Translations under genes and position numbers: made by a program
Assembly: GCA_042408215.1 (NCBI GenBank)
Contig: JAYFMW010000017.1
Span: 672,001 to 736,000 of the forward strand
Source: Microcoleus sp.
GTDB lineage: Bacteria; Cyanobacteriota; Cyanobacteriia; Cyanobacteriales; Microcoleaceae
Reading direction: 5' to 3'
DNA length: 64,000 nt
Notes under the pieces: model-generated
The model's database searches: none
Told to the model about the DNA's origin: nothing
Seen by the model: the letters and a program-made list of their open reading frames with translations, nothing else
Shown: positions 1,138 through 42,085 of the stretch, piece by piece
Layout: every line of letters starts with the position of its first letter
Position numbering within the stretch: position 1 is the stretch's first letter

Positions 1138-3978
1138 TCAATTGCAAATAGGTGGCACCGCCCCTGGGCTGTAAGGCACAACTAATGGCGCATTCGCAAC
1201 CAATTCTACTTCACCTTTAGGATTAATTATCCAGCCTTGAGCCTCCACAAGAGGCTCAGCCTCCACATCATTATTCTCACTACCCCGACTGACTCTCTCC
1301 CTGGGTGTTGGTGGCAAACCGCCCCGCCCGGTAATTACAAACCGACTTGCTCTTGGCCCGCTATTTTGACAGGCTTGTGTTGGCTGTGGCGGCACTCCGG
1401 GGGTTACTGGCAGATTTAATCCTTGTACGGGGTCAATATCGGGAGTTCTGAGTTCGACATTGCCGTTAATTCCTAATTCTGAACTGGCGTCGATATCGCT
1501 GTCAAAAGAGCGAAAAATACCTTGGGTATTAATTACAATATTTCCGCCTCGGCCTCGGATCGCATTGGCGCGGATGTCGCTATTTTCTAAAGCAGTTACA
1601 GTCCCAGCTTCGATATTAATATTGCCGCCTGTCGCAGTCCCTGAAGCATTAGTCGTAATTTGACTGTTGTGGCGCATTTGCAAATTTCTAGTTTGCAAAG
1701 TGATATTGCCGAAATTTCCGGCTTGAGTTGTGGCTGCGATTGTGCCATTATTTAAATGAATTGAATCAGCAGCAATTCTCAAGTTTCCAGCAGATCCTTG
1801 GCCGTCCGCACTGACAGTAACTTTGGCTCCATCTCGGATAATTAACTGTCCGGTTTTAACATTTAAATTGCCGCCCGCACCGGTAGAATCTTTCCCCGTA
1901 CTGGCAAATAGTCCGCTAGCGGCACCTTCATTGTTACCGACGATGTTGGTATTGAATAGCAAGGCTCGATCGCTGAAATTGCGATCGCTGCCATAAATCG
2001 CAATTTTGTCAGCAGCATTGACGGTCAAATTACCAGCTTGACCGCTGCTGCGAGTTGTGGCGATCGCCTGTCCGCCCCCAGCAGCCTCAAAAATATTAGC
2101 ATTAATCGTGATGTTTCCCCCATCATATTCGTTCAGGGTTTGAGAGTTAACAACCGCTCCATTGGAAACTCGAAAAATATTAGTATTAACTGTAATATCC
2201 CCACCTCTACCACCCGCCCCTGGTTGTGTTGGAGCTAGTAAAGCGCTAGATGAATTATCGGAACCTACCCCATCAACTGTCACGAAATCAGCAGCATTCA
2301 CTGTGATATTTCCAGCTCGTCCCTGCCCTTCTGTTCTGGTAACAATAACACCACCATTGGCAATTGATAGCGATCGAGTTGTGACGCGAATATTTCCGCC
2401 TTCACCAACTCCTGTTCTTTTGACGCTGCTGAACAAACCGCTGGATTGTCCAATTCCCAAAGCCGGTGTTATCGGGCCAGTGCCATCTAAGGTAATGCTG
2501 TCGCGGACGCTAACAGTTACATTGCCAGCATTGCCTTCGCCTGCCGTGCTGGCGGTTATGACAGCACCGTTAGTGACAGAAAGCGACCCAGCCGTAATAT
2601 TAATGCTCCCTCCCTCACCAGTGCTCGTATATTCTTCTACTCTGCTGTAGACACCGCTGGAAAAGACCTCGGCATTGCGACTCGTGCCGTCAAAAATCGC
2701 TGTATCGCGGACGTTAATGTTGACGCTGCCCACATTCCCCCGCCCGATCGTACTCGCTTGCAGAACAGCGCCGTTAGTTACAGAAAGTGAGCCTGCTGTG
2801 AGATTGACGTTGCCGCCTTGACCTGTAGCTGGGCTTTCAACCAGGCTGTATGCACCGCTGGAGGTTTTTTCCACTCCATCAAAGGAGGCTGTATTGCTAA
2901 CGTTAATATTGACGCTGCCGGCATCTCCGCGCCCGTAAGTCCCGGCGTATATTTGACCGCCGCTGGTGACAGAAAGCGAGTTTGCTGTGAGGTTGACATC
3001 GCCGCCGGTGCCTGTAGCGTTTGTCAGCAGTGCATTAGAAATAAATGTGCCTTCACCGTCGATCGCGATCGCCCCCGTCGCATTAATATCAATATTCCCC
3101 GCCAAGGCATCAGTCGTACCGGATGTTGCCGCTATCCCCGCCCGCAGTTTACTTCCTTCGGAAAGATTCAAGTTCTGAGCGCTGACAACAATATTCCCGC
3201 CACCTCCGGCGCGTACATTCACGTCAGCGCTGTTTGTGAGAGATACATCGACTCTGGCTATTTGCGCCGGAACATTTAAACTCACATTGTTACCGAAGGC
3301 GTTCAGCCCGACAGTTTCCCCTCCCGCAACGGCTGCGAGCTCTACTCGGCCGCCCGGTGCCAGGATTTTTCCGCCGTCCAATCTCACATCGCCGCCCGCA
3401 AGTATCAAACTGTCGCCCGATCGCACCTGCAATCCATCAGTCGATCGATTTACTATACTTCCAGGATTCAGTCCGTACTGCAATCCCAGAGGAACGCTAA
3501 CTATTAGCAAAGGCGTATTTTGTCCCGAAACATTCGCCGAGAAATCCCAGCCATTTCCAAACTGCACAGCACTCGCCGTAGTCGCCACAAACGAACCGCC
3601 GATATTTAATGAAGCATTCGGCCCAAAAATAATCCCGTTCGGATTGAGCAAAAATAAATTTGCAGTACCGTTAGCTTTTATCGCACCGTCAATATTAGAA
3701 ATCGAGCCTCCCGTAACGCGGCTGAAAATATTTTGAATATCTGTAGAATTGTTGAAAAACGCTGTTTCTCCTCTCAGAAGTGAAAATTCTCGAAAACTGT
3801 GAAAGAGATTGCTACCGGCTTGCGTTCCGCCCTGTATAAAGTTATTACTGTCGTTGACAATTACCGTCGTATTGACTGGTAGAGTCGCATCCGGGACAAT
3901 TTCTGCGTTGCTGGGGGCGATCGCACTGAGGCTAAAAAAGATCGTACCGAGCCAGAAATTGCAAGTTTTTAGTTTCAT
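1138..3978 (-). CDS. Filamentous haemagglutinin / two-partner-secretion domain exoprotein
   Basis: Signal-peptide-like N-terminus, NLFHSF and NPNGIIFG TPS motifs, Gly/Asn-rich repeats, C-terminal FVITGRGGLPP...VEAQGW. Confidence 0.9.
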   Translation of the reverse strand: MKLKTCNFWLGTIFFSLSAIAPSNAEIVPDATLPVNTTVIVNDSNNFIQGGTQAGSNLFHSFREFSLLRGETAFFNNSTDIQNIFSRVTGGSISNIDGAIKANGTANLFLLNPNGIIFGPNASLNIGGSFVATTASAVQFGNGWDFSANVSGQNTPLLIVSVPLGLQYGLNPGSIVNRSTDGLQVRSGDSLILAGGDVRLDGGKILAPGGRVELAAVAGGETVGLNAFGNNVSLNVPAQIARVDVSLTNSADVNVRAGGGGNIVVSAQNLNLSEGSKLRAGIAATSGTTDALAGNIDINATGAIAIDGEGTFISNALLTNATGTGGDVNLTANSLSVTSGGQIYAGTYGRGDAGSVNINVSNTASFDGVEKTSSGAYSLVESPATGQGGNVNLTAGSLSVTNGAVLQASTIGRGNVGSVNINVRDTAIFDGTSRNAEVFSSGVYSRVEEYTSTGEGGSINITAGSLSVTNGAVITASTAGEGNAGNVTVSVRDSITLDGTGPITPALGIGQSSGLFSSVKRTGVGEGGNIRVTTRSLSIANGGVIVTRTEGQGRAGNITVNAADFVTVDGVGSDNSSSALLAPTQPGAGGRGGDITVNTNIFRVSNGAVVNSQTLNEYDGGNITINANIFEAAGGGQAIATTRSSGQAGNLTVNAADKIAIYGSDRNFSDRALLFNTNIVGNNEGAASGLFASTGKDSTGAGGNLNVKTGQLIIRDGAKVTVSADGQGSAGNLRIAADSIHLNNGTIAATTQAGNFGNITLQTRNLQMRHNSQITTNASGTATGGNINIEAGTVTALENSDIRANAIRGRGGNIVINTQGIFRSFDSDIDASSELGINGNVELRTPDIDPVQGLNLPVTPGVPPQPTQACQNSGPRASRFVITGRGGLPPTPRERVSRGSENNDVEAEPLVEAQGWIINPKGEVELVANAPLVVPYSPGAVPPICN

Positions 3979-4139
3979 TAATTAACTAATTTTAATTTTT
4001 TGATTAACCTCCGATTATACCATTGGGTGTATTAATTTTACATATTTTTACTGAATTTTAAAATTAGGTTTTTTTAAACGAACCGCGAAGACGCGAAGGA
4101 CACGAAGGAAGAGAAGATAAATTGTATTAAAACGTGATG

Positions 4140-4709
4140 TTATTCTTGAGTTTCTGCTTCTGTAAAAATTGGTGGCCAGAGTTCAGAAATTGGCAATTCC
4201 CAACCAGGAAAAAGTTCGGGGAGTGTCAAAATATCTTCATTTCCCAACACAATCGGTTCGCCTGTCTGACGGTAAACTGTAACAGTTTCTTCATCCGGGT
4301 CGATCGTAATTCCCACTTGCGATCCGAGTTCTAGAAATTTATGAATCTTTTTTTCGAGCGGCTTTATGCGATCGCACTGTGATTTAATTTCTACTACCAA
4401 GTCTGGGACTAATTCTCCGAAATAACGCGGACTTTTCCTGAGACGTGCGGCCCGAACAAAAGAAACATCAGGTGCGGTAAGATTAGCATCAGGTAAAATA
4501 AAGCCGCCTGCGGAGTCAAAGATTCTTCCCAAGCGACGGGGATTCACCCAAACGAAGAGAAAGGCACTCAAGCGAATGCCTATTTCGCTAGATACAATAT
4601 CTGACGGGCCCATTATTACAATTCTCCCACTTTCTAGTTCAACTTGGTAATCTTGACCGGCTTCTTGGAAAGTTTTTTGGACTTTTTCTAAGTCTTTGAG
4701 TGTCATCAT
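4140..4709 (-). CDS. Uma2 family (PD-(D/E)XK) endonuclease
   Basis: APDVSFV and PDLVVEIKS motifs, 189 aa. Confidence 0.9.
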   Translation of the reverse strand: MMTLKDLEKVQKTFQEAGQDYQVELESGRIVIMGPSDIVSSEIGIRLSAFLFVWVNPRRLGRIFDSAGGFILPDANLTAPDVSFVRAARLRKSPRYFGELVPDLVVEIKSQCDRIKPLEKKIHKFLELGSQVGITIDPDEETVTVYRQTGEPIVLGNEDILTLPELFPGWELPISELWPPIFTEAETQE

Positions 4710-4732
4710 ATTGGTTATTCCTTAATTTGTCA

Positions 4733-4793
4733 GGTGCGTCAGTCTTTAGCATATTCACAATTAGCAGAATTATCTGCAACTGACGCACCCTAC
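4733..4793. repeat. REP-like inverted pair
   Basis: GGTGCGTCAGT...ACTGACGCACCCTAC; related sequence near 40248. Confidence 0.6.
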
Positions 4794-4800
4794 TGTTTGG

Positions 4801-5130
4801 TTATTCCCTGGCTGAAAAAGAATTGCCGCAGCTACAACTTTTAGCCGCATTAGGATTGTGAAATCGGAAACCTCCGCCCATCAAGTCCTCTGAATAGTCC
4901 AAGGTGAGCTCGTTGAGATATTTTAAGTGCTGGGGGTCGATCGCGATTTGGATGCCCTCAGACTCGCAAACAGTGGCTGATGGGGCGATCGCATCTTCAA
5001 AACCCATTGTATAGGACAAACCGGAGCAGCCGCTCGATTCCACGCCCAGGCGCAATAAAGCATTGGGGTTTGGATGCTTCGACTTGAGACGGGTTACTTC
5101 CAGGGCTGCGGTTTTACTCAGATGAATCAT
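4801..5130 (-). CDS. iscA: Fe-S cluster assembly accessory protein (HesB/IscA family)
   Basis: GCSGLSY and NPNAAKSCSCGNSF motifs. Confidence 0.88.
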   Translation of the reverse strand: MIHLSKTAALEVTRLKSKHPNPNALLRLGVESSGCSGLSYTMGFEDAIAPSATVCESEGIQIAIDPQHLKYLNELTLDYSEDLMGGGFRFHNPNAAKSCSCGNSFSARE

Positions 5131-5134
5131 TAAT

Positions 5135-5440
5135 TTGGGAATTGGGAATTGGGAATTGGGAATGGGGAATTGGGAATGGGAATGGGAATGGGGAATGGGG
5201 AATGGGGAATGGGGAATGGGGAATGGGGATGGGGAATGGGGAATGGGGAATGGGGAATGGGGAATTGGGAATGGGGAATGGGGAATGGGGAATGGGGAAT
5301 GGGGAATGGGGAATGGGGAATGGGGAATGGGGAATGGGGAATTAGTTATTAGTTGTGGCTTATTACTAATTGTTTATTGCTTACTTGTTGGTGCCAATAC
5401 CCTATGCCCTATGCCCTATGCCCTATGCCCTATGCCCTAG
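5135..5440. repeat. STRR heptamer tracts (GGGAATG/GGGAATT, then TGCCCTA)
   Basis: Direct tandem 7-mers at 5135-5344 and 5399-5440. Confidence 0.95.
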
Positions 5441-5461
5441 GCCCAATTACCAGTTTATCGG

Positions 5462-5884
5462 TTATTTAGCCTTCGATTCAGTCCGGGCATAATCGTCTTG
5501 AAAACGTACAATATCGTCTTCTCCGAGATATTCGCCATTCTGCACCTCAATTAAAATCAGCGGGATGACTCCCGGATTTTCCAGACGGTGATTGATGCAC
5601 TGAGGAACGTAGGTAGACTGATTTGTAAATAAAACTTCTTCAGTTTCACCGCAAGTAACTTTAGCAGTACCAGAAACTACGATCCAGTGTTCGCTGCGAT
5701 GGTGGTGCATTTGCAGGCTGAGGCGATGTCCGGGCTTAACTTCTATGCGCTTAATTTTATATCCAGGCCCTTCTTCTAGAGTTGTAAAAGAACCCCAAGG
5801 GCGTAATTCTGTGGCGGTAATTCCGTTGATTGCAACAGGTGCGCGCAGAGTAGATGTTTGAGAAATTTCTTGAGTCTGAACCAT
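5462..5884 (-). CDS. Mannose-6-phosphate isomerase type II C-terminal cupin
   Basis: RPWG, LSLQMHHHRSEHW, YLGEDDIVRF. Confidence 0.92.
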   Translation of the reverse strand: MVQTQEISQTSTLRAPVAINGITATELRPWGSFTTLEEGPGYKIKRIEVKPGHRLSLQMHHHRSEHWIVVSGTAKVTCGETEEVLFTNQSTYVPQCINHRLENPGVIPLILIEVQNGEYLGEDDIVRFQDDYARTESKAK

Positions 5885-6147
5885 GTTTTTACTCCTTCAG
5901 GATTGCTTGTTTAAGCCTTTAGTAGACAACGTTGGTTGTTGAGGGTAGCTAATTTGTTGTTAAAATTAAAGCTCACCTGGACGGATGGGGAGCGAACTGT
6001 ACATTTTTGCACTGTCTACTCAGCCCGATCGACTTGCCTTAACAACCATAGCAAAAGCAAGATAGCTGTTGTCACCTGGTATTCGATCGATCCACAAATC
6101 TACATCAACTCTTGATCCCCAAAGGCTGGTTCTTTAAACAAGCTTTA

Positions 6148-7628
6148 GTCAACTACCCAGCATCAAGCGGAGTACCGCTATGATGTGGGCTTGTATCTGA
6201 GCTCCACCGCAATTCCGAAAACCTTTGCAGGATTTGGGCTTTGGTTTCACCGCTCGATACATCAGGGGATGCTGACAAGCTCAAGAGTGCTAGTCCAGTC
6301 TTGCCGAACTAGCAACGCTCTCATTGCAATATTTCGCGCACCAACCAAATCAGCGTGTAACTCATGCCCACAACATTCGCAACGGAATAATAGCCCTTTA
6401 TTCGGTCTATTAGTATCTGAAGTATGTCCACATTTAGGACAACTTTTCGATGTGTAATGAGCTGGAACTTGAGTCGCTAATGAACCATTTAGATTAGCTT
6501 TGTAGTCGATATACCCGTGCAATTCGGCCTAAGACCATTTAGCTTTGTTTCGATTAGCTTTATGTCTCTTCTTGCTTGCCTTCTTGCCCGATTTAGTTCT
6601 AGTCCTGTCCCGTATTCCGGTTAGGTTTTCTAGTCCAATTAGGGTATTGGGTTTCGCAATATCCTTACTGATTTGGTGGTTCACATCAGCGATAAACCGT
6701 CTTTCTCTTCCCGACAGAGCAATTAATCTTCGCTTTGCAGAACGAGTGTCTTTACGCTGAAGAGTTGTCCGTGCCTTGTGATAGCGATTGGCTTTGTATC
6801 TAACTTCCTTGCCTGAATAGAATTTAGAGTTGTTTTGTAAGTCTGTTTCTACGGCAAGATAGCGCATTCCCACGTCAACACCGACAACTCTGGTGATTTT
6901 CAATGGATTGATTTCAGGCGTTTCCACTTCGACACTTACCATCAGATAGTAGGTCTTGGAGGAACGCTGATAGACAATTTTGGCCGCTCCAATCCTTGCA
7001 CCATTAGCAATTAAATCTAAATGCTTGTTATAGCCATCATACGGGACTACTATTCGACCTTGTAGGGTGATGATACTCACCTGTTGCTCGGTCTTAAAAG
7101 AGTAGTCACGCTGATAGTTTAAGGTGCAAGTCCGAGAGATCTACTTAGGGGCTTTGTCCAGCCCCTTGTACCGCCTTTTGGTGTAGCCTTTGGTAATAGC
7201 GTCGTTAGATTGTTTTACCTTAGTCCAGAGGGTTTTGTAGGTTCCAGACACTTGTCTAGGTACATTACACGCCATCTGCGCTCCAAGTCCAAATCGAATC
7301 CGTAATTCGTTGTAGACAATTTTCTGTAACTTAGCTCCCTTACTGGTTTTGCCCGCATCAAAAGCAATTTGCGAAGTGTAGTTCAAGGCATCACGGTAGG
7401 CTAAAGCAGTCTGAGACACCAAAGCTTTTTGCTCTGCGGTCAGGTTTAGTTTTAGCTTGGCAGTGATTACTTGGGGCATTGGTTAGCTCTACTCTGATGT
7501 TATCGTATCTCGTGAAAACTAATATTGCAATAACGGAAATCAAAGATTTGTTCAGCTCCCCGGCCTCACGCGCATTCCTCCCGTCACTCAAGGTCGTACC
7601 GTTAGAGTGCGGGACTCCTGCTGTCTAG
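6148..7628 (-). mobile_element. Non-autonomous IS200/IS605-family element (tnpB only)
   Basis: Subterminal hairpins at 6148-6192 and about 7575-7628; target motif TCAA on minus strand (7629-7632); no tnpA. Confidence 0.8.
6262..7479 (-). pseudogene. tnpB: TnpB with two in-frame TAG stops
   Basis: ORFs 7141-7479, 6529-7080 and 6262-6522 share one frame; GVDVG, LENL, CPKC...CECC and ADLVGA motifs; stops at 7141-7143 and 6529-6531. Confidence 0.88.
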
Positions 7629-7831
7629 TTGAAGGGGCATAGGGCTAAGGCCTAGGGCTAGGGCTGGGGCTAAAATCGGCATAAGGACTAATGATGACTG
7701 AGAATTTTCTTAAGACCTGAAACCTACAAGCTTAACTCACTACAAAATATAATACGTGATACTAGATCGATCGGCCTCCCATCCTCTACTCTAGATCAAC
7801 ATCTTTTCCCCACTTTGAGAGACACATCAAA

Positions 7832-10800
7832 ATGAACAACAACGGACTGCCACCAAAGCAAGGCCTGTACGATCCGCAGTTCGAGCACGACGCTTGCGGA
7901 GTCGGATTTATTGTACAGGTCAAGGGTAACAAATCCCACGAAATTGTCGAACAGGGACTGACAATCCTGTTAAACCTCGACCACCGGGGCGCCTGTGGCT
8001 GCGAACCCAACACCGGAGACGGCGCGGGGATTTTGATGCAAGTACCCCACAAGTTCCTCAAGAAAGCAGCAGCAGCCCAAAATATCGAACTTCCCGAAGC
8101 CGGCGAGTACGGTGTCGGTGCAATTTACTCATCGCGCGATCGAACTCAACGCGAAAACGGCAAACGCATCTTTGCAGAAATCGCCGCCGAAGAAAGCTGT
8201 CCCGTGCTAGGTTGGCGCGATGTCCCCACAGATAACTCATCCCTGGGCGATACCGCCAAAGCTAGCGAACCCTTCATGCAGCAAGTGTTCGTCAGCCGCG
8301 CCGCAGGTATGGACGAGGCGGCTTTCGAGCGGAAACTCTACGTCATCCGCAAACGGGCTCACAATGCCATCCGCAGGACGAAGGTAGACCCATACTGGTA
8401 TAATTCCACACTTTCCTGCCGGACGATCGTCTATAAGGGAATGCTGATGCCGGTGCAAGTGGGAGATTACTATCCCGAACTGCACGACCCCGACATGGAA
8501 AGCGCTCTAGCTCTTGTCCACTCGCGCTTCAGCACCAATACTTTTCCGAGTTGGGAACGATCGCACCCTTACCGCTACATCGCCCACAACGGCGAAATTA
8601 ACACCATGCGCGGCAACATCAACTGGATGCACGCGCGGCAATCGATGTTCGAGTCGGAACTATTCGGCGATGATTTAAAGAAAATCCCGAATTTAATCAA
8701 CATCGAAGGTAGCGACTCGACTATCTTTGATAATGCTCTGGAATTGCTGACTTTGGCTGGGCGTTCTTTACCGCACGCGGTGATGATGATGATTCCCGAA
8801 CCTTGGACAGCCCACGAGTCGATGAGTGACGAGAAAAAAGCTTTCTACGAATACCATTCGTGCTTGATGGAACCTTGGGATGGGCCGGCTTCCATCGCCT
8901 TTACCGATGGTACTTCGATCGGGGCTGTACTCGATCGCAACGGTTTGCGCCCTTCCCGCTACTGCGTCACCAAAGACGACATAGTAATCATGGCATCAGA
9001 AGCCGGAGTTTTGCCGATCGCCCCAGAACGAATTGCATCCAAAGGCCGCCTACAACCGGGCCGGATGTTCCTAGTAAATACAGCAGAAGGCCGCATCGTT
9101 TCTGACGAAGAAATCAAACATCAAATCGCCTCCGAACACCCGTATCGCGAGTGGATTGACAAGCACATGGTAGAGATTGCCAAGCTACCAGATGCTACCC
9201 AATTGGTAGAGTCAGACCCCGAAACATTATTGCAGCGGCAAATGGCCTTCGGATACACCTTTGAAGAACTGCGGTTGCTGTTGGCACCGATGGCACGCGA
9301 CGGGGTGGAAGCTGTCGGCGCAATGGGCGCGGATACGCCACTGGCGGTGCTTTCCAATCGACCCAAGCTGCTTTATGAATACTTCCAGCAACTGTTTGCT
9401 CAAGTTACGAATCCGCCGATCGATTCGATCCGAGAAGAGATTGTCACTTCCGCTGAAACTACGATCGGCGCTGAACGCAATTTGCTCAAACCGGAACCAG
9501 AAAGCTGTCACTTGATTGAGTTGAAAACACCAATTCTCAGCAATGAAGAACTGGCTAAACTCAAACAGGTTTCCGAGGGCAATTTCAAGTCTGTTACCAT
9601 AGGGATTTTGTTTGACCCCAAAACAGGAGTAAAAGGTCTTGAACAGGCGTTAGAAGATGTTTTTGATGCAGCCGATAGCGCGATCGCCTCTGGGGTGAAT
9701 ATCCTGATTTTGAGCGATCGGGGAATCAATGCAGACCAAGCTCCGATTCCGGCACTGCTAGCAGTTGCAGGGCTGCACCACCACTTGATTCGCCAAGGTA
9801 CGCGGACGCGGGCCGGACTGGTGCTCGAATCCGGGGAACCGAGGGAAGTTCACCACTTTGCGACTTTAATCGGCTACGGTTGCGGTGCGATCAATCCGTA
9901 TTTGGCCTTTGAGACGATCGCCGATTCGATCCGCCAAGGTTTGCTGGTAAATGTTGATACCAAAACAGCTTGCAAAAATTACGTGAAAGCCGCCAGCAAA
10001 GGTGTCACCAAAGTTGCCTCGAAAATTGGGATTTCCACCATTCAAAGTTACCGTGGCGCGCAAATTTTTGAGGCGATCGGCTTAAACAAATCTGTAGTCA
10101 ATAAATACTTCACCTGGACAGCATCGCGGATTGAAGGAGTAGACCTCGAAGTCATCGCCCAAGAAGCTATTTTACGCCATACCCACGCATTCCCCGATCG
10201 CCCATCCAGCGGACACACCCTCGATGTCGGTGGCGAATATCAATGGCGCAAGGAAGGCGAGGCTCACTTGTTCAGCCCGCAAACCATCCACGCCCTGCAA
10301 CAAGCAGTGCGCGAAGGAAGTTATCCGCTTTTTAAACAGTATTCCGGGCTGGTTAACGAACAAAATCAACAGCATTTTACCCTGCGCGGTTTGCTGGAAT
10401 TCAAGCAGCGGGAATCGATTCCCATTGAGGAAGTTGAACCGGTTGAATCTATTCTCAAACGCTTCAAAACTGGGGCGATGAGTTACGGTTCGATTTCCCA
10501 AGAAGCCCACGAATCTCTAGCCGTAGCGATGAACCGCATTGGTGGTAAATCGAACACTGGTGAAGGTGGCGAAGATCCCGATCGCTATACTTGGACAAAC
10601 GATCGCGGTGACTCGAAAAACAGTGCGATCAAACAAGTTGCTTCCGGTCGTTTTGGCGTCACCAGCTTGTACTTGTCTCAGGCGCGGGAACTACAAATCA
10701 AGATGGCGCAAGGGGCGAAACCCGGAGAAGGCGGACAGTTACCCGGTAAAAAAGTATACCCGTGGATTGCCAAGGTACGGCACTCGACACCTGGTGTGGG

Positions 10801-34802: not shown

Positions 34803-35055
34803 GGGTATTGGGGGATGGTATAGCTGAAGGAAGAGGGAAGAAGGAAGAGGGAAGAAGGAAGAAGGAAAGTCCTAATATCATAAGTTGGGGTGCTGCCACA
34901 AATTGCTATAATTGCAAAATCCCAACCAGAACCAGGACTTCTTTATTCTTAACATAGTTGGCGCGCTCAAATTGGGATAGGAGTTTTACCCAAAGAGACC
35001 GATCGCTGTGGAAGTTTAAATTGAGAATATTTTAAAATTGTAGAAGGTAAACACC

Positions 35056-35445
35056 ATGAAATCTATAATTTTGGGTTCAGTTTCATTCGGACTGATTTTG
35101 GGGTTGGCGGCAGGGGTGATTGCGGCTAATCCGCAACAAGTTAACGAGTTGCGACAAACTAACCAGTGTCGGGGATGCGATTTGAGAAGCATTCCCCTAC
35201 CTCGCGCAAGTTTAGCAAATGCTAATTTACAAGGGGCTGATTTGAGGGGTGCAAATCTCAGAGAAGCGAATTTGGCTGGGGCCAATTTGAGCGGGGCTTC
35301 TCTTGGTGGGGCTTCTTTGCGGCAGGCTAATTTACAAGGTGCGGATTTGACTAAGGCTAATTTAATGGGGGCAGATTTGACGGGGGCTAATTTGGACAAT
35401 GCTAATCTGAAAGATGCGACTTGGGTTGATGGTACTATTAAATAA
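35056..35445 (+). CDS. Secreted pentapeptide repeat protein
   Basis: Signal peptide, CRGCDL, A(N/D)LxG repeats. Confidence 0.92.
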   Translation: MKSIILGSVSFGLILGLAAGVIAANPQQVNELRQTNQCRGCDLRSIPLPRASLANANLQGADLRGANLREANLAGANLSGASLGGASLRQANLQGADLTKANLMGADLTGANLDNANLKDATWVDGTIK

Positions 35446-35548
35446 ATAGAAGCTAATTGGCAAAGTCGCGGACGGGCTAGAAGCCCATCCCACAAGAGTT
35501 TTAATAGATTTCACAATGCAAACTAAATGTTGTTTAGCTTAGCAATGA

Positions 35549-36280
35549 ATGATAAATACGATCGCCTTTAAGACTTGGGACAATTTGCTACACACCTATG
35601 TTGACGATTTTGGCCGCGTGAATTATTTGCGCTGGAAAGCAGAGTCGGCGGATGTTTTGAGACAATGGCTGGAAAGTTTGGCGGATGTGGATTTGGCGGC
35701 TTTGACGGATGCGGATGAGCGGCTGGCTTTGTGGCTGAATGCGTATAATGCGATCGCCATTGCTCAAGTTCTTGAAGTATATCCGATCGCGTCAATTCGT
35801 CCAAAAGTTTTGGGAATTCCCAACTGGCTAAGCTTTTTGGATTTCTTCACCCGTTCAACTTCGACAATTGCGGGGAAAAAGTACAGTCTCAATCAAATCG
35901 AACACGGGATTTTGCGCCGGGAATTTGGGGAACCTCGCATCCATTTTGCCTTAGTTTGCGCTTCTGTGGGATGTCCGATGTTGCGTCGCGGGGCTTATTT
36001 CCCGGAGTCAGTGCGAACTCAACTGGAAACAGACGCGAAGGGTTTTATTCACAATCCCGACAAGGTGCGGTACGATGCTGGGAAGAAGACGCTTTATTTG
36101 AGTAAGATTTTTGATTGGTACGGTCAGGATTTTGTGAAGGCGGCGGGCTCTGTGGTTGGGTATGTGGGCGGTTATTTGGGGCCGGATGTGGCTGTGGATG
36201 ATGAATGGGCGATCGTTTTTTTGCTCTATGATTGGAATTTAAATTCAAACTCTCAAAACTTGAACGATTTCCAAATCTGA
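35549..36280 (+). CDS. DUF547 domain protein
   Basis: WLNAYN, EPRIHFALVCASVGCP, SKIFDWY, YDWNLN. Confidence 0.9.
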   Translation: MINTIAFKTWDNLLHTYVDDFGRVNYLRWKAESADVLRQWLESLADVDLAALTDADERLALWLNAYNAIAIAQVLEVYPIASIRPKVLGIPNWLSFLDFFTRSTSTIAGKKYSLNQIEHGILRREFGEPRIHFALVCASVGCPMLRRGAYFPESVRTQLETDAKGFIHNPDKVRYDAGKKTLYLSKIFDWYGQDFVKAAGSVVGYVGGYLGPDVAVDDEWAIVFLLYDWNLNSNSQNLNDFQI

Positions 36281-36316
36281 CGGCGATCGTTTTTTGGCCC
36301 TATGATTGGAATTTAA
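36208..36316 (+). repeat. 37-nt direct duplication with a 37-nt insert (second copy split by the IscB element)
   Basis: 36208-36244 versus 36282-36316 plus 37904-37905; 35/37 identical. Confidence 0.85.
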
Positions 36317-36555
36317 GTCAACCACCCACCACTAATCGGAGTACCAATCTAGTGGGGGCTTAAAAAAGCCAAGTTGACCAGTCTAAGTGGTTCGCCCACT
36401 ACGTTTAAGGTCAGCGTTAAAGACCTACCAGAAAATGCGTGCTAGTTTTCTGCTCTAGAAATTAAAAGTTAAACAGGTGTAAGGGTTAAGCCAGTGCTTT
36501 TAATATAGTTACCGACCTTAAACATTGACGAAGCAAACATTACCCCGTAAGGGAG
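36317..36555 (+). ncRNA. Predicted omegaRNA scaffold of IscB
   Basis: About 240-nt structured non-coding region between element end and iscB (GTCAAC...GTTGAC pairing, internal hairpins); boundaries approximate. Confidence 0.75.
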
Positions 36556-36562
36556 GACTTAA

Positions 36563-37831
36563 ATGTCTAATTTTGTTTTTGTACTTGATACCCACAAACG
36601 ACCGCTCAATCCAATCCGACCGGGATTGGCTCGTAAGTTGTTAAACAATGGCAAAGCTGCTGTTTTCAAAAGGTATCCATTCACACTAATTCTGAAAGTA
36701 GAGGTGACAGCAACCCAAAAATCCACTCTTAAAATAGACCCAGGCTCTAAGACTACGGGAATCGCATTAGTGCAAGGAGAGGACGTAATTTTTGGTGCAG
36801 AATTAACTCACCGAGGTCAAACAATTAAAGCCAGTTTGGAGTCTCGCCGTTCATTGCGTAGAGGCAGGAGAAATCGTCACACTCGTTATCGTCAAGCGAG
36901 GTTTTTCAATCGCACCCGACAAAAGGGTTGGTTAGCACCATCCTTACAACATCGAGTAGAAACAACCCTAACTTGGGTTAACAAATTTATCCGACTCGCA
37001 CCCATTGGTTCAATTGTTCAAGAATTAGTAAGATTTGACTTACAACAACTAGAAAATCCCGAAATCTCAGGCGTTGAATATCAGCAAGGAGAATTAGCTG
37101 GCTACGAAGTTCGGGAATATCTATTGAACAAATGGGACAGGAAATGCGCTTATTGCGGTGTTGAAAATGTACCTTTGCAAATTGAACATATTCATCCCAA
37201 AGCTAAAGGTGGCAGCGATCGCATTTCTAACCTTTGCCTTGCTTGCGAAAATTGTAATACTCGGAAAGGGACTCAAAGTATTGAGCAATTTCTATCTAAA
37301 AAGCCAGAGATTTTGAAGCGGATTCTATCTCAAGCTCATCGTCCGTTAAAAGATGCAGCAGCAGTTAATTCAACTCGTTGGGCATTATTTAATCGACTCC
37401 GCATGACTGGCTTACCAGTTTCTACTGGTAGTGGTGGTCTAACAAAGTTCAACCGCACTCGATTGAATTTAGCTAAAACCCACTGGTTAGATGCAGCTTG
37501 TGTTGGACAAGTTAAATCTTTGGAAGTTCTAACCCGTAAACCTTTATTAATTAAAGCGACTGGACATGGGACTCGTCAAATGTGCCGCACTGACAAGTTT
37601 GGATTTCCATCTCGCTATGTTCCCCGGCTGAAATTTGTTAAAGGTTTTCAAACAGGCGATATTGTTAAAGCTGTTGTTACCTCGGGCAAGAAAATTGGTA
37701 AATACGTTGGACGTGTTGCCGTAAGAACGAGTGGTTCATTCAATATTTCCGCATCCGAATTGGTATCGGGAATTAGTCACAAATATTGTTCAGTTGTTCA
37801 CCGAAAGGATGGTTATTCGTATGCAGCATAA
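36563..37831 (+). CDS. iscB: RNA-guided endonuclease IscB
   Basis: PLMP-like RPLNP, RuvC-I IDPGS, Arg-rich helix RRSLRRGRR, RuvC-II QELVRFD, HNH (CAYC...EHIHP...NL...CENCN), RuvC-III HWLDAA. Confidence 0.95.
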   Translation: MSNFVFVLDTHKRPLNPIRPGLARKLLNNGKAAVFKRYPFTLILKVEVTATQKSTLKIDPGSKTTGIALVQGEDVIFGAELTHRGQTIKASLESRRSLRRGRRNRHTRYRQARFFNRTRQKGWLAPSLQHRVETTLTWVNKFIRLAPIGSIVQELVRFDLQQLENPEISGVEYQQGELAGYEVREYLLNKWDRKCAYCGVENVPLQIEHIHPKAKGGSDRISNLCLACENCNTRKGTQSIEQFLSKKPEILKRILSQAHRPLKDAAAVNSTRWALFNRLRMTGLPVSTGSGGLTKFNRTRLNLAKTHWLDAACVGQVKSLEVLTRKPLLIKATGHGTRQMCRTDKFGFPSRYVPRLKFVKGFQTGDIVKAVVTSGKKIGKYVGRVAVRTSGSFNISASELVSGISHKYCSVVHRKDGYSYAA

Positions 37832-37940
37832 TCCTTGCCTCCCTTTTCCTCTCGCCACTGACCAGGGTACAGGTACAGTGGGAGTCTCCAAGGGGGAAGA
37901 CAGATGAAACAAAAAGCCACTTTCAAGTCGGGATATTTGG

Positions 37941-38047
37941 CCGCATCGCCCAAGTTGCAATTACCAGAAAACCCTATGTTTAATCTGCGAATCCGCGCAC
38001 TTCAGCCCGGCCACATCGCCCAAGTTGCAATTACCAGAAAACCCTAT
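37941..38047 (+). CRISPR. Two out-of-register 37-nt repeats with spacer-like inserts
   Basis: CC(G/A)CATCGCCCAA plus GTTGCAATTACCAGAAAACCCTAT at 37941-37977 and 38011-38047; unique 33- and 35-nt inserts follow. Confidence 0.75.
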
Positions 38048-38095
38048 TCAGAATCTTGTAGACTGCGAAATATCGCACTAGCCCCCATCGCCCAA

Positions 38096-38317
38096 GTTGC
38101 AATTCCCAGAAAACCCTATTAGGGATTGAAACGAATCTTTGCAGAATAGGTAAATAAACTATGGGTTGCAATTCCCAGAAAACCCTATTAGGGATTGAAA
38201 CGAATCTTTGCAGAATAGGTAAATAAACTATGGGTTGCAATTCCCAGAAAACCCTATTAGGGATTGAAACTGGGTAAGCCGATAATCGCGATCTCGTTGC
38301 TCTTTCTGTTGCAATTA
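38096..38317 (+). CRISPR. Orphan CRISPR array with type I-D-like 37-nt repeat
   Basis: GTTGCAATTCCCAGAAAACCCTATTAGGGATTGAAAC at 38096, 38165 and 38234; partial repeat 38308-38317; spacers 32, 32 (identical) and 37 nt; no cas genes in window. Confidence 0.93.
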
Positions 38318-38920
38318 TAGCAACCGCCAAGGCGGTTATGGCGTAAACTGAGAATAATCTTCTTTGTTGCGGGACGATCGCACGTCATGGCCCAACCATA
38401 CAGCTACCACCTACGTCAGAAAGTCATTCAAGCTATCCAACTAGATGGCTTAAAGATTATGGAAGCGAGTATATTGTTCGACATCAGTCGCAACACGATC
38501 GGGCTATGGCTGAAGCGACAAGCCCAAACAGGGGACTTTCTAGCATTGCTTGGGCGCGCCCCCGGTAATGGTCATAAAATTACCGATTGGGAAAAATTCC
38601 GCGAGTTGGCCTCAGATCGTGGGGAGAAAACCCAGGTGGAGATGGCGAAACTTTGGGATGGACAAATTAGCTCACGCACAATCTCACGAGCCTTAAAGAA
38701 AATAGGTTTTATATCAAATCCGGTAGCATCGGAATTATTCATCTCTCTCTTCTCTCCCTCTGCGCCCTCTGCGCCCTCTGCGGTTAAATCATTCCGATGC
38801 AACCGGAAACGATATTACTCGAAAAAAAAGACTTCTGGCTACCGCGAGCGGGATGAAGCCAAGCGCCAAGCTTTCATAGCCGAGTTGTCCACCATACTCC
38901 GAGACAAAATTGTTGATATT
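38318..38920 (+). mobile_element. Truncated IS630-family element containing a MITE
   Basis: TA then TAGCAACCGCC end; OrfA HTH, A8 slippery run, start of OrfB (GYRERDEAKRQAF); DDE domain missing; right limit approximate. Confidence 0.85.
38712..38814. mobile_element. 103-bp MITE with TTA target duplication
   Basis: TTA at 38709-38711 and 38815-38817; inverted copy of 1035-1137. Confidence 0.8.
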
Positions 38921-39199
38921 TACCACCATACTCCCCAGATTTCAACTTGCATTGAACAATGCTAGTCTTGGCCCAAAAGCAGCGCTGAGCGGAGCCGAAG
39001 CGTCGAATTCGTAAACTCAAGCATCAGTTTGATTCTTGGCGAGATGCGATCGAGGATGTCTTGCGCCTTCCGTCCTAACACGGGCGGTTGCTAGATCTGT
39101 AGGGTGCGCCGAGGCGCACCTTAGACCCACAAATACTCTAAAAATTGATCCCTTACCTAAGTGCTATAAGAGTTCGATCGAAGAGAATCGACTAAACAA

Positions 39200-41521: not shown

Positions 41522-41852
41522 ATTCACTCGCATCCCCTGTACTCTGTTTATAACATTTTACAACTGCCGAGGTGTCGGGGCCAACAGTAATATTACTGAA
41601 TTTTACCAATTAAAAATAATCAATCCTGGGAGTTTAACCCATCAGGTAGTGGTTCCCCTCCGGGGTTTTATACTTCAGGATACAAGACCTATTTCTACTA
41701 TTAGCTAATCATTAAAAGCTGGCTTTTGACTAATAATATCAAGTCCGGTTAATTGCTGATAAATCCTGTACGGGCCGAAAAGCATTGGGCCGAAAAGCAT
41801 ACCTCACTTTCTTGAGAACCGCTATATGTTTATTTGTACCACTTACTTAATG

Positions 41853-42085
41853 ACTATGACTACTGACTACTGACTACTGACTACTGACTACTGACTACTG
41901 ACTACTGACTACTGACTACTGACTAATGACCAATGACTAATGACCAATGACTACTGACTACTGACTAATGACTACTGACTACTGACTAATGACCAATGAC
42001 TACTGACTAATGACCAATGACTAATGACCAATGACTACTGACTACTGACTAATGACTACTGACTAATGACTACTGACTACTGACT
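41853..42085. repeat. STRR heptamer tract (TGACTAC/TGACTAA/TGACCAA)
   Basis: About 33 tandem 7-mers; overlaps the yidD stop. Confidence 0.95.

Follow-up and report, generated by a model that had tools for sequence, protein, structure and literature searches.

Displaced repeat-length duplications beside a leaderless type I-D-family CRISPR stump in a Microcoleus genome: a possible record of off-register spacer integration

The locus described here lies in a window of 64,000 nucleotides (G000:C17:672001-736000) of the 7.36-Mb genome of a cyanobacterium, Microcoleus sp., where a gene of the DUF547 family is followed by repeat-length duplications, an IscB element and a short CRISPR array. Judged from its sequence and its surroundings, the array is the trailer-side, leaderless stump of an old type I-D-family array that was ancestrally placed behind DUF547. 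Upstream of the complete repeats two non-canonical sequences are duplicated at about repeat length around unrelated inserts of spacer size. We propose that a Cas1-Cas2 integrase kept its cut spacing of about 37 bp and lost its register, twice at a position 13 nt upstream of the true repeat and once in the end of the DUF547 gene. The evidence for this proposal is circumstantial, and we put its chances at about even. The IscB element is an ordinary non-autonomous, multi-copy insertion of the IS200/IS605 type, and the locus as a whole adds a natural case to kinds of event already known.

Without the IscB element (36317-37903) the locus reads as a 37-mer from the DUF547 end, a 37-nt unique insert, a second copy of the 37-mer (35/37 identical), 35 nt, and three shifted units that are split by unrelated inserts of 33 and 35 nt and lead into the normal array. 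This arrangement of units, inserts and excised IscB element had been put forward in a first-pass annotation made from the letters alone, and it is borne out by direct reading and a repeat search. The features are the following.

35549-36280, plus strand: DUF547 gene (open reading frame; Pfam DUF547, E 2.4e-27)
36208-36244, plus strand: A1, first copy of the 37-nt unit from the DUF547 end (direct reading, repeat search)
36245-36281, plus strand: insA, 37-nt unique insert, candidate mis-placed spacer (self match only in its own genome)
36282-36316, plus strand: A2, second copy of the A unit; its final 2 bases, AT, are 37904-37905, past the IscB element
36317-37903, plus strand: IscB insertion sequence of 1587 nt without tnpA (omegaRNA 36317-36543, iscB 36563-37831)
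37904-37908, plus strand: ATGAA, the target or transposon-adjacent motif (TAM; TTCAT on the other strand), abutting the element (ATGA[A/C] behind 10/10 full copies)
37906-37940, plus strand: x, 35-nt piece between A2 and U1 (direct reading)
37941-37977, plus strand: U1, shifted unit of 13 upstream nt and repeat bases 1-24 (repeat family D5)
37978-38010, plus strand: Sa, 33-nt unique insert (self match only in its own genome)
38011-38047, plus strand: U2, shifted unit (D5; 38/39 identical to U1)
38048-38082, plus strand: Sb, 35-nt unique insert (pairwise insert comparison; family-genome search)
38083-38132, plus strand: U3, which shares bases with the first complete repeat (38096-38132); it is a shifted unit continued by 13 nt (TAGGGATTGAAAC) absent from U1 and U2
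38133-38307, plus strand: remainder of the canonical stump (spacer 38133-38164, repeat 38165-38201, spacer 38202-38233, repeat 38234-38270, spacer 38271-38307)
38308-38317, plus strand: fourth repeat, cut after 10 nt (GTTGCAATTA; direct reading)
38320-39092, plus strand: IS630-like remnant, TA-flanked, with terminal inverted repeats GCAACCGCC/GGCGGTTGC (Pfam HTH_Tnp_IS630 on the open reading frame 38387-38965)

Cas1-Cas2 adds spacers to an array by a staggered double cut, insertion and fill-in, and an insert flanked by a direct duplication of repeat length is therefore the signature of such an event. The lengths found in the window agree with this. Three large arrays of the I-D family elsewhere in the genome have repeats of 37 nt and spacers of 24-46 nt, mostly 33-37 (203 repeats; one 106-nt gap in the array on contig C10 is an outlier). 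The A unit is duplicated over 37 nt (35/37), the U units can be framed as 37 nt within a 39-nt stretch of identity, and the inserts of 37, 33 and 35 nt fall within the spacer range. The duplicated non-canonical sequences thus number two, A and U, in addition to the true repeat.

The repeat search reports A2 as 35 nt at 94%; with the AT restored after removal of the IscB element it is 37 nt long and matches A1 at 35/37 positions, and insA is unrelated to the A copies on either side of it. The conserved end of the DUF547 protein (..YDWNLN) lies within A1, and its final 12 codons and stop are supplied by insA. Of 60 other genomes of the genus, 53 have a homologue of the DUF547 locus, and for 50 of these the aligned part reaches no further than window position 36244, the last base of A1. 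The 37-mer is single in all of the relatives' loci inspected (29/29, namely 27 and 2 more), where it is mostly followed by CGGGTTGA, which holds the stop, and never by insA. The first-pass annotation had proposed a comparison of relatives for empty alleles with a single 37-mer and had named ancestral intergenic DNA as another possible source of insA: the empty alleles exist, insA is not found downstream of DUF547 in any relative shown, and the duplicated length equals that of the repeat (37 nt). The unit starts with GGCGATCG, which we take to be HIP1-like. It lies within one repeat-spacer period of U1, and the gap from A2 to U1 has the length of one spacer, which may be chance. The last two bases of A1 are the ancestral AT rather than the GT of the IscB element, which favours the order duplication first, IscB insertion second, an argument that turns on a single base.

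The shifted units start at 37939/37941, 38009/38011 and 38081/38083 (family D5; spacing 70 and 72) and consist of some 13-15 bases from upstream of the repeat (..CC.CATCGCCCAA) followed by the first 24 bases of the CRISPR repeat. U3 continues into precisely those 13 bases of the repeat that are missing from U1 and U2, and so gives the first complete repeat at 38096. Retention of these 13 bases in the downstream copy only is what a pair of staggered cuts at -13 and +24 predicts. Over 37 nt U1 and U2 differ at 1 position and U2 and U3 at 2, and that the most upstream pair is the most similar fits addition at the leader side. Comparison of the inserts in 15 pairs shows no significant likeness (lowest p 0.047), whereas identity among the units is 95-97%; unrelated inserts between such similar units make a decayed tandem duplication unlikely. 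U1 and U2 are without the second half of the repeat hairpin and without the ATTGAAAC handle, so that Sa and Sb probably yield no processed guides; in that function these spacers are probably dead. A resemblance between the start of U1 (GCCGCA) and that of the I-D repeat (GCCGCAA) was given no weight, the corresponding bases being GCCACA in U2 and CCCCCA in U3.

The array itself has canonical 37-nt repeats at 38096, 38165 and 38234 (family D4, spacing 69), which score 39.7 bits with the Rfam model CRISPR-DR5, just under its gathering score of 40. Their 3' end, CCCTAT[T/C]AGGGATTGAAAC, is shared with the arrays on contigs C12, C26 and C10 (18/19 bases). Two of the three canonical spacers are identical (38133-38164 and 38202-38233): the 69-nt repeat-spacer unit is duplicated with 100% identity, a plain tandem duplication that is the product of recent recombination or slippage and not of acquisition. 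Upstream of the first repeat there is no leader, as the DNA between the DUF547 stop and the repeats is fully taken up by insA, A2, the IscB element, x, the U units and their inserts. A leader, ending in ..GGCG, is kept in relatives and in the C12 and C26 arrays. In four more distant relatives (about 85% identity) DUF547 is followed by a conserved leader of some 260 nt, which belongs to the leader family of the C12 and C26 arrays, and by a long array of related 37-nt repeats. This leader and array behind DUF547 identify the window array as a leaderless stump. Loss of the array is seen in the five closest relatives (90-94%), where another gene stands behind DUF547. Of 78 genomes of the genus, 4 contain a single copy of the repeat variant found in the window (GTTGCAATTACCA.AAAACCC.AT); in each of them it opens a terminal array of two repeats at the same locus. 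At its downstream end the stump is terminated by the IS630-like remnant, of which only the helix-turn-helix part is left and which stands directly behind the fourth repeat, cut at 38317.

The gene behind DUF547 in the closest relatives is also present in the genome studied here, 37 kb away and on the other strand. A lone repeat (GTTGCAATTACCATAAAACCCTATTAAGGATTGAAAC) is found on the minus strand at G000:C17:670987-671023, about 1 kb before the first base of the window, directly behind a TnpB-like open reading frame and in front of that same gene; probably a rearrangement brought it there and it represents the opposite end of the one decayed array. The 39-kb stretch from stump to lone repeat is rearranged relative to three complete or near-complete relatives, and a simple inversion does not match the comparison with these three. 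The array of one relative (G026:C36) shows an irregular unit of another kind for this array family: of one repeat only the 3' 17 nt remain, following unrelated DNA, and the first part of the spacer before it recurs behind this partial repeat.

A type I-D system, whose cas1/cas2 the first-pass annotation had advised looking for elsewhere in the genome, is present, and its repeats are 37 nt long and of the same family. The operon, on contig C26, holds cas3', cas10d, csc2, csc1, cas6, cas4 and cas1d, of which the first six give full-length family matches, and the 61-repeat array beside it is intact. Matches to cas1 lie on contigs C6 and C26 only and none on C17, which carries the window; other cas families were not searched for in the window.

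The most likely course of events is the following. The starting state would be the leaderless stump behind DUF547. During acquisition Cas1-Cas2 would make two staggered cuts one repeat length apart, so that about 37 bp are duplicated around each insert. With the leader gone, the normal cue for the register would be absent and the cuts could fall at wrong places, twice on the segment starting 13 nt upstream of the true repeat and once on the last 37 nt of the conserved DUF547 coding sequence. An IscB element, mobilised in trans by TnpA, would later have inserted at the ATGAA that spans the end of A2.

The layout does not result from misassembly, since it is found in the contigs of several sequencing runs. 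Contigs from four public runs of four studies, one of which may be the source of the assembly, cover 35000-36344 (X1 and X14), 36107-36344 (X2) and 36157-36344 (X15) without gaps. This cover spans A1, insA, A2 and the start of the element. On the other side X1 and X2 cover 37879-38125 and 37881-38043, with two base changes (37967 and 38007). In both runs a G>T change at 37967 turns U1 into the ACCATAAAACC variant, as in the lone repeat and in relatives, and a C>G change at 38007 falls in Sa; the stump is thus polymorphic between samples.

A foreign source was sought for the inserts in several collections. A BLAST search of phages and plasmids with 37904-38310 and 36208-36316 as queries yielded matches to the repeat only, or a 36-nt match of 83% at chance level (E 0.3), and exact 25-26-mers of insA, Sa and Sb had 0 matches in IMG/VR. 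Against 143 genomes of the family, BLAST with the insA region gave nothing credible, the best match, in AT-rich DNA, being a gapped 30/35; of the 12 weak matches, 8 fell on the 3' end of insA and the HIP1-like start of A2. With Sa-U2-Sb as query 4 of the 143 genomes matched, all on the repeat part. In the genome itself insA, x and Sa had self matches only, among the matches listed. The phage and plasmid search of the inserts recommended in the first-pass annotation therefore demonstrates no foreign origin for any of them in these collections, which are poor in phages of such cyanobacteria. A scan of metagenomes with a 19-mer of the unit found 20 loci, one of them a true relative (L062) with a single copy.

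The proposal of integration at displaced sites has to be weighed against a number of points that do not favour it. The identity of U1 and U2 extends over 39 nt and not exactly 37, and the left edge of U3 is fuzzy. For the unit A a reading of 42/43 nt that includes one indel is also available, [C/G]AAAC following both copies. The flanks of x are unlike each other, so that x is no spacer by the usual rule and the series is not one continuous chain of integrations. The piece begins with GAAAC, like the 3' end of a repeat, and may be the remainder of an old spacer or residual upstream flank; an origin from the ancestral leader was rejected, since x bears no resemblance by eye to the relatives' leaders and, searched with the next 13 nt as a 40-nt pattern (at most 3 mismatches), it occurs in 0 of 78 genomes of the genus. 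The DNA behind A2 is GAAAC and x rather than the downstream CGGGTTGA of the relatives, and an earlier rearrangement must therefore have ended at the exact base where the A duplication ends, a coincidence that stands unexplained. Similarity to the repeat is weak in A, as 3-6% of random genomic 37-mers align with it as well as A2 does and 18-42% as well as A1. The cas1d gene of the operon (G000:C26:90763-91621) is in pieces, with one TGA, one TAG and a change of frame, and the one cas1 that is intact is found at a III-B locus, whose repeat differs; the I-D cas1 may have been intact when the events occurred. A protospacer was not found for any insert in phages, plasmids, IMG/VR or the 143 family genomes. 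No intermediate allele was seen in the contigs of the four runs, where neither a joint that skips the IscB element nor a shorter allele is listed, or in metagenome contigs, although contigs cannot show absence. The earlier claim that spacer acquisition crept upstream into the DUF547 end thus stands as the best explanation of the duplications, and falls short in that no foreign origin is shown for the inserts and x has no matching flanks.

Two other origins were considered. The U units might be the only integrase products, the DUF547-end duplication having arisen by another route and lying beside the stump by chance. A could have come from a break closed by error-prone repair, with filler DNA put in, or be an attL/attR remnant of a mostly deleted integrative element that carried a copy of the gene end. 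The weak resemblance of A to the repeat, its HIP1-like start and the non-ancestral DNA at the exact boundary behind A2 would all suit such an origin, as would the existence of 23 other isolated loci in which copies of a repeat of at least 30 nt flank an unrelated insert. These 23 are, however, the only ones in the whole genome, and the 7 that were inspected are hairpin elements or miniature inverted-repeat transposable elements (MITEs) or coding repeats, unlike A. From these numbers the occurrence of such a locus within about 150 nt of the array end is estimated to be roughly a 1-in-100 event or rarer, a rough and post hoc figure. Moreover, the duplicated length and the insert length, both 37, equal those of CRISPR repeats and spacers in this genome, U1 is no further from A than one repeat-spacer period, and the 37 nt between the A copies hold no integrase gene or other trace of an element. 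We consider it improbable, though worth bearing in mind, that A has such a separate origin.

A more radical alternative is that none of the structures was made by an integrase and that they are decayed tandem duplications and recombination scars in a repeat-rich genome. The genome is indeed full of tandem repeats, the canonical stump itself contains the plain 69-nt tandem duplication (D4), Sa and Sb share the short collinear words CTGCGAA and CGCACT (the pair with the p of 0.047), and the failure to find protospacers in the collections searched would be expected. Neutral decay of tandem copies, however, would not leave units of 95-97% identity with unrelated inserts between them, nor does it account for the continuation of U3 into precisely the 13 missing repeat bases or for lengths that match repeat and spacer sizes. 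This alternative seems to us slightly less probable again than a separate origin of A. Off-register integration of spacers thus remains our preferred reading of the duplications.

The element between the A2 end and the ATGAA target carries a complete HEARO/omegaRNA (Rfam RF02033) at 36317-36543 (144.4 bits, gathering score 83, E 2.9e-31, full model 1-211), followed by an intact IscB open reading frame of 422 amino acids at 36563-37831 (RuvC-type N-terminal region, Pfam RRXRR, E 4.4e-73; HNH domain, E 1.6e-11). Genome-wide there are 42 DNA matches and 28 protein matches to it. Ten full copies start with GTCAAC, end with GACAG, are about 1587-1604 nt long and have otherwise unrelated flanks; the DNA behind them is ATGAA in 8/10 and ATGAC in 2/10. 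For a sister copy at C5:582138 the empty site is available in relatives, and in 6/6 examined it contains ATGAC once. Such an uninterrupted site with a single ATGAC indicates that ATGA[A/C] belongs to the flank and that the target is not duplicated. A duplication of the flank is seen at only 1 of 14 omegaRNA ends, that of the copy in the window. Y1 transposase genes (tnpA) are present elsewhere in the genome, with at least 12 matches of about full model length and no internal stops. The element limits given in the first-pass annotation, 36317-37903, were right: the ends of the ten copies, the flank motif and the empty sites of the sister copy agree on them. Conserved ends, TTCAT target, copy number and the sister copy's empty sites all argue for a later insertion that is unrelated to the duplications. 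A further omegaRNA-end match at window position 6148 (G000:C17:678148) has no partner end at the usual distance and is likely a fragment.

The 16 nt immediately 5' of the omegaRNA scaffold, which is the guide position, are the end of A2 (36301-36316) and so are host sequence. The guide would be the last 16 nt of A2 by an accident of position, and its target would be the empty site, as in homing of an insertion sequence, rather than CRISPR spacers. A second perfect copy of the guide 16-mer lies in A1 (36227-36242), followed by ATTCA and not ATGAA. This copy is a potential self-target lacking the TAM.

The properties of the element are those described for ISGst5 of Geobacillus stearothermophilus (bioRxiv 10.1101/2023.03.14.532601). 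Both have an omegaRNA upstream of iscB, lack tnpA and occur in many copies, and in both the TAM is TTCAT (ATGAA on the iscB strand) at the far end, without target duplication, the guide being the flank beside the omegaRNA end. In the Geobacillus element single-base changes in TTCAT abolished cutting, according to the same source. Nothing essential separates the two; the copy in the window differs in sitting in duplicated host sequence and in having a second perfect match to its guide 74 nt upstream, without a TAM.

The position of an omegaRNA directly behind a repeat-spacer-like unit had led the first-pass annotation to suggest a natural intermediate in the coupling of IscB to CRISPR. In such a functional or incipient hybrid the repeat-spacer units would feed guides to the omegaRNA. 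The scaffold does stand directly behind A1-insA-A2 on the same strand, and CRISPR-associated IscBs exist; in the sections of the source that deal with them they are defined by an array within the noncoding RNA whose repeat pairs with an anti-repeat (PMC12660989). We compared predicted pairing with that of shuffled sequences (RNAduplex). The 37-nt CRISPR repeat against 36317-36562 gave -15.5 kcal/mol, a value reached by a fraction of 0.81 of the shuffles. A2 against the same segment gave -28.1, with 1.3% of the shuffles as good (fraction 0.013), by way of a U-run on an A-run and long loops and without a contiguous duplex. No repeat/anti-repeat architecture between CRISPR repeat and omegaRNA emerged from these predictions. 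Neither is there an array with variable spacers 5' of the scaffold: the guide position is held by the fixed host sequence of the A2 end, insA lies 37 nt further off, and the true array is on the far, 3' side of the iscB gene. With at least 10 full copies having the same ends at unrelated sites, boundaries and target as in plain IS200/IS605 elements, and U1 and U2 without a processing hairpin, the hybrid is very unlikely. The suggested coupling intermediate is thus not supported, as what is present is an ordinary multi-copy insertion sequence at ATGAA (TTCAT), a repeat that pairs with the omegaRNA like its shuffles, and shifted units lacking the part needed for crRNA processing.

A still bolder version would have the DUF547 37-mer as a repeat born de novo by ectopic integration, with read-through transcription supplying alternative 5' guides to IscB; in a milder form, the integrase would read the periodicity of the array. 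Both seem to us far-fetched. If true, the former would be a precursor of CRISPR-associated IscB or of Cas9 caught in the act, and the milder form would mean that the I-D integrase puts ectopic spacers exactly one repeat-spacer period upstream. As it is, the IscB found here is an ordinary insertion sequence and the finding has no bearing on the origin of Cas9 from IscB. Compared with the CRISPR-associated DelIscB, as presented in the parts of the source that concern it (PMC12660989), the locus is similar in that an IscB with its scaffold RNA stands beside CRISPR-like units. It differs in having no repeat/anti-repeat pairing and no array in the noncoding-RNA position, in that the element is a mobile multi-copy insertion sequence, and in that the array lies downstream of iscB.

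Two further repetitive features were seen in the window. The IS630-like remnant is interrupted at 38707-38815 by a small inverted-repeat element, which is a very abundant MITE that is also present in the relatives' loci; contigs from metagenomes cover it to a depth of 1495-7910, compared with values of mostly about 10-60 elsewhere, the multi-copy IscB stretch excepted. A microsatellite of 7-nt units (ACTACTG / ACTAATG / ACCAATG) extends over about 170 nt at window positions 41824-41991, upstream of a minus-strand response-regulator gene.

If the proposed role of the integrase is right, the locus is a rare natural fossil of a type I-D complex that kept its cut spacing without the leader cue. 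It would then also illustrate that new repeat-like units can arise through such errors from ordinary DNA, even from the end of a host gene's coding sequence, which is one proposed route to the birth of CRISPR arrays. The locus also offers a defined test substrate for the rules of ruler and register in I-D adaptation. Nivala, Shipman and Church reportedly described in 2018 non-canonical Cas1-Cas2 integration that creates 'neo-CRISPR' units. Off-target integration by Cas1-Cas2 is proposed as a seed of new arrays in the passages of the sources that treat it (PMC6698737; bioRxiv 10.1101/148544). As there portrayed, neo-CRISPR units share with the duplications in the window a spacer-sized insert and a repeat-length duplication of non-repeat DNA, outside the proper leader-repeat junction. 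The window differs from them in holding a natural, fixed and old example in a cyanobacterial I-D-family stump, with one of the sites in a coding end. Its events lie directly upstream of a leaderless array instead of being scattered over the genome, and here the integrase is the presumed rather than the known agent.

The second comparison concerns the length of the duplications. Studies of Goren and of Wang, both of 2016, are said to deal with ruler-type control of repeat duplication. For Pyrococcus furiosus such control during adaptation is indicated in the relevant part of a further report (PMC6698737). As in the ruler-type systems outlined there, the duplicated length in the window stays near that of the repeat while the cut sites move. 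A constant length with moving cuts is to be expected if the spacing is measured and the register is set by separate cues. The ruler studies, so far as their outlines go, are mutational and in vitro, whereas here a shift of -13 is read from a genome, and the 39-nt identity of U1 and U2 leaves the exactness of a ruler not established.

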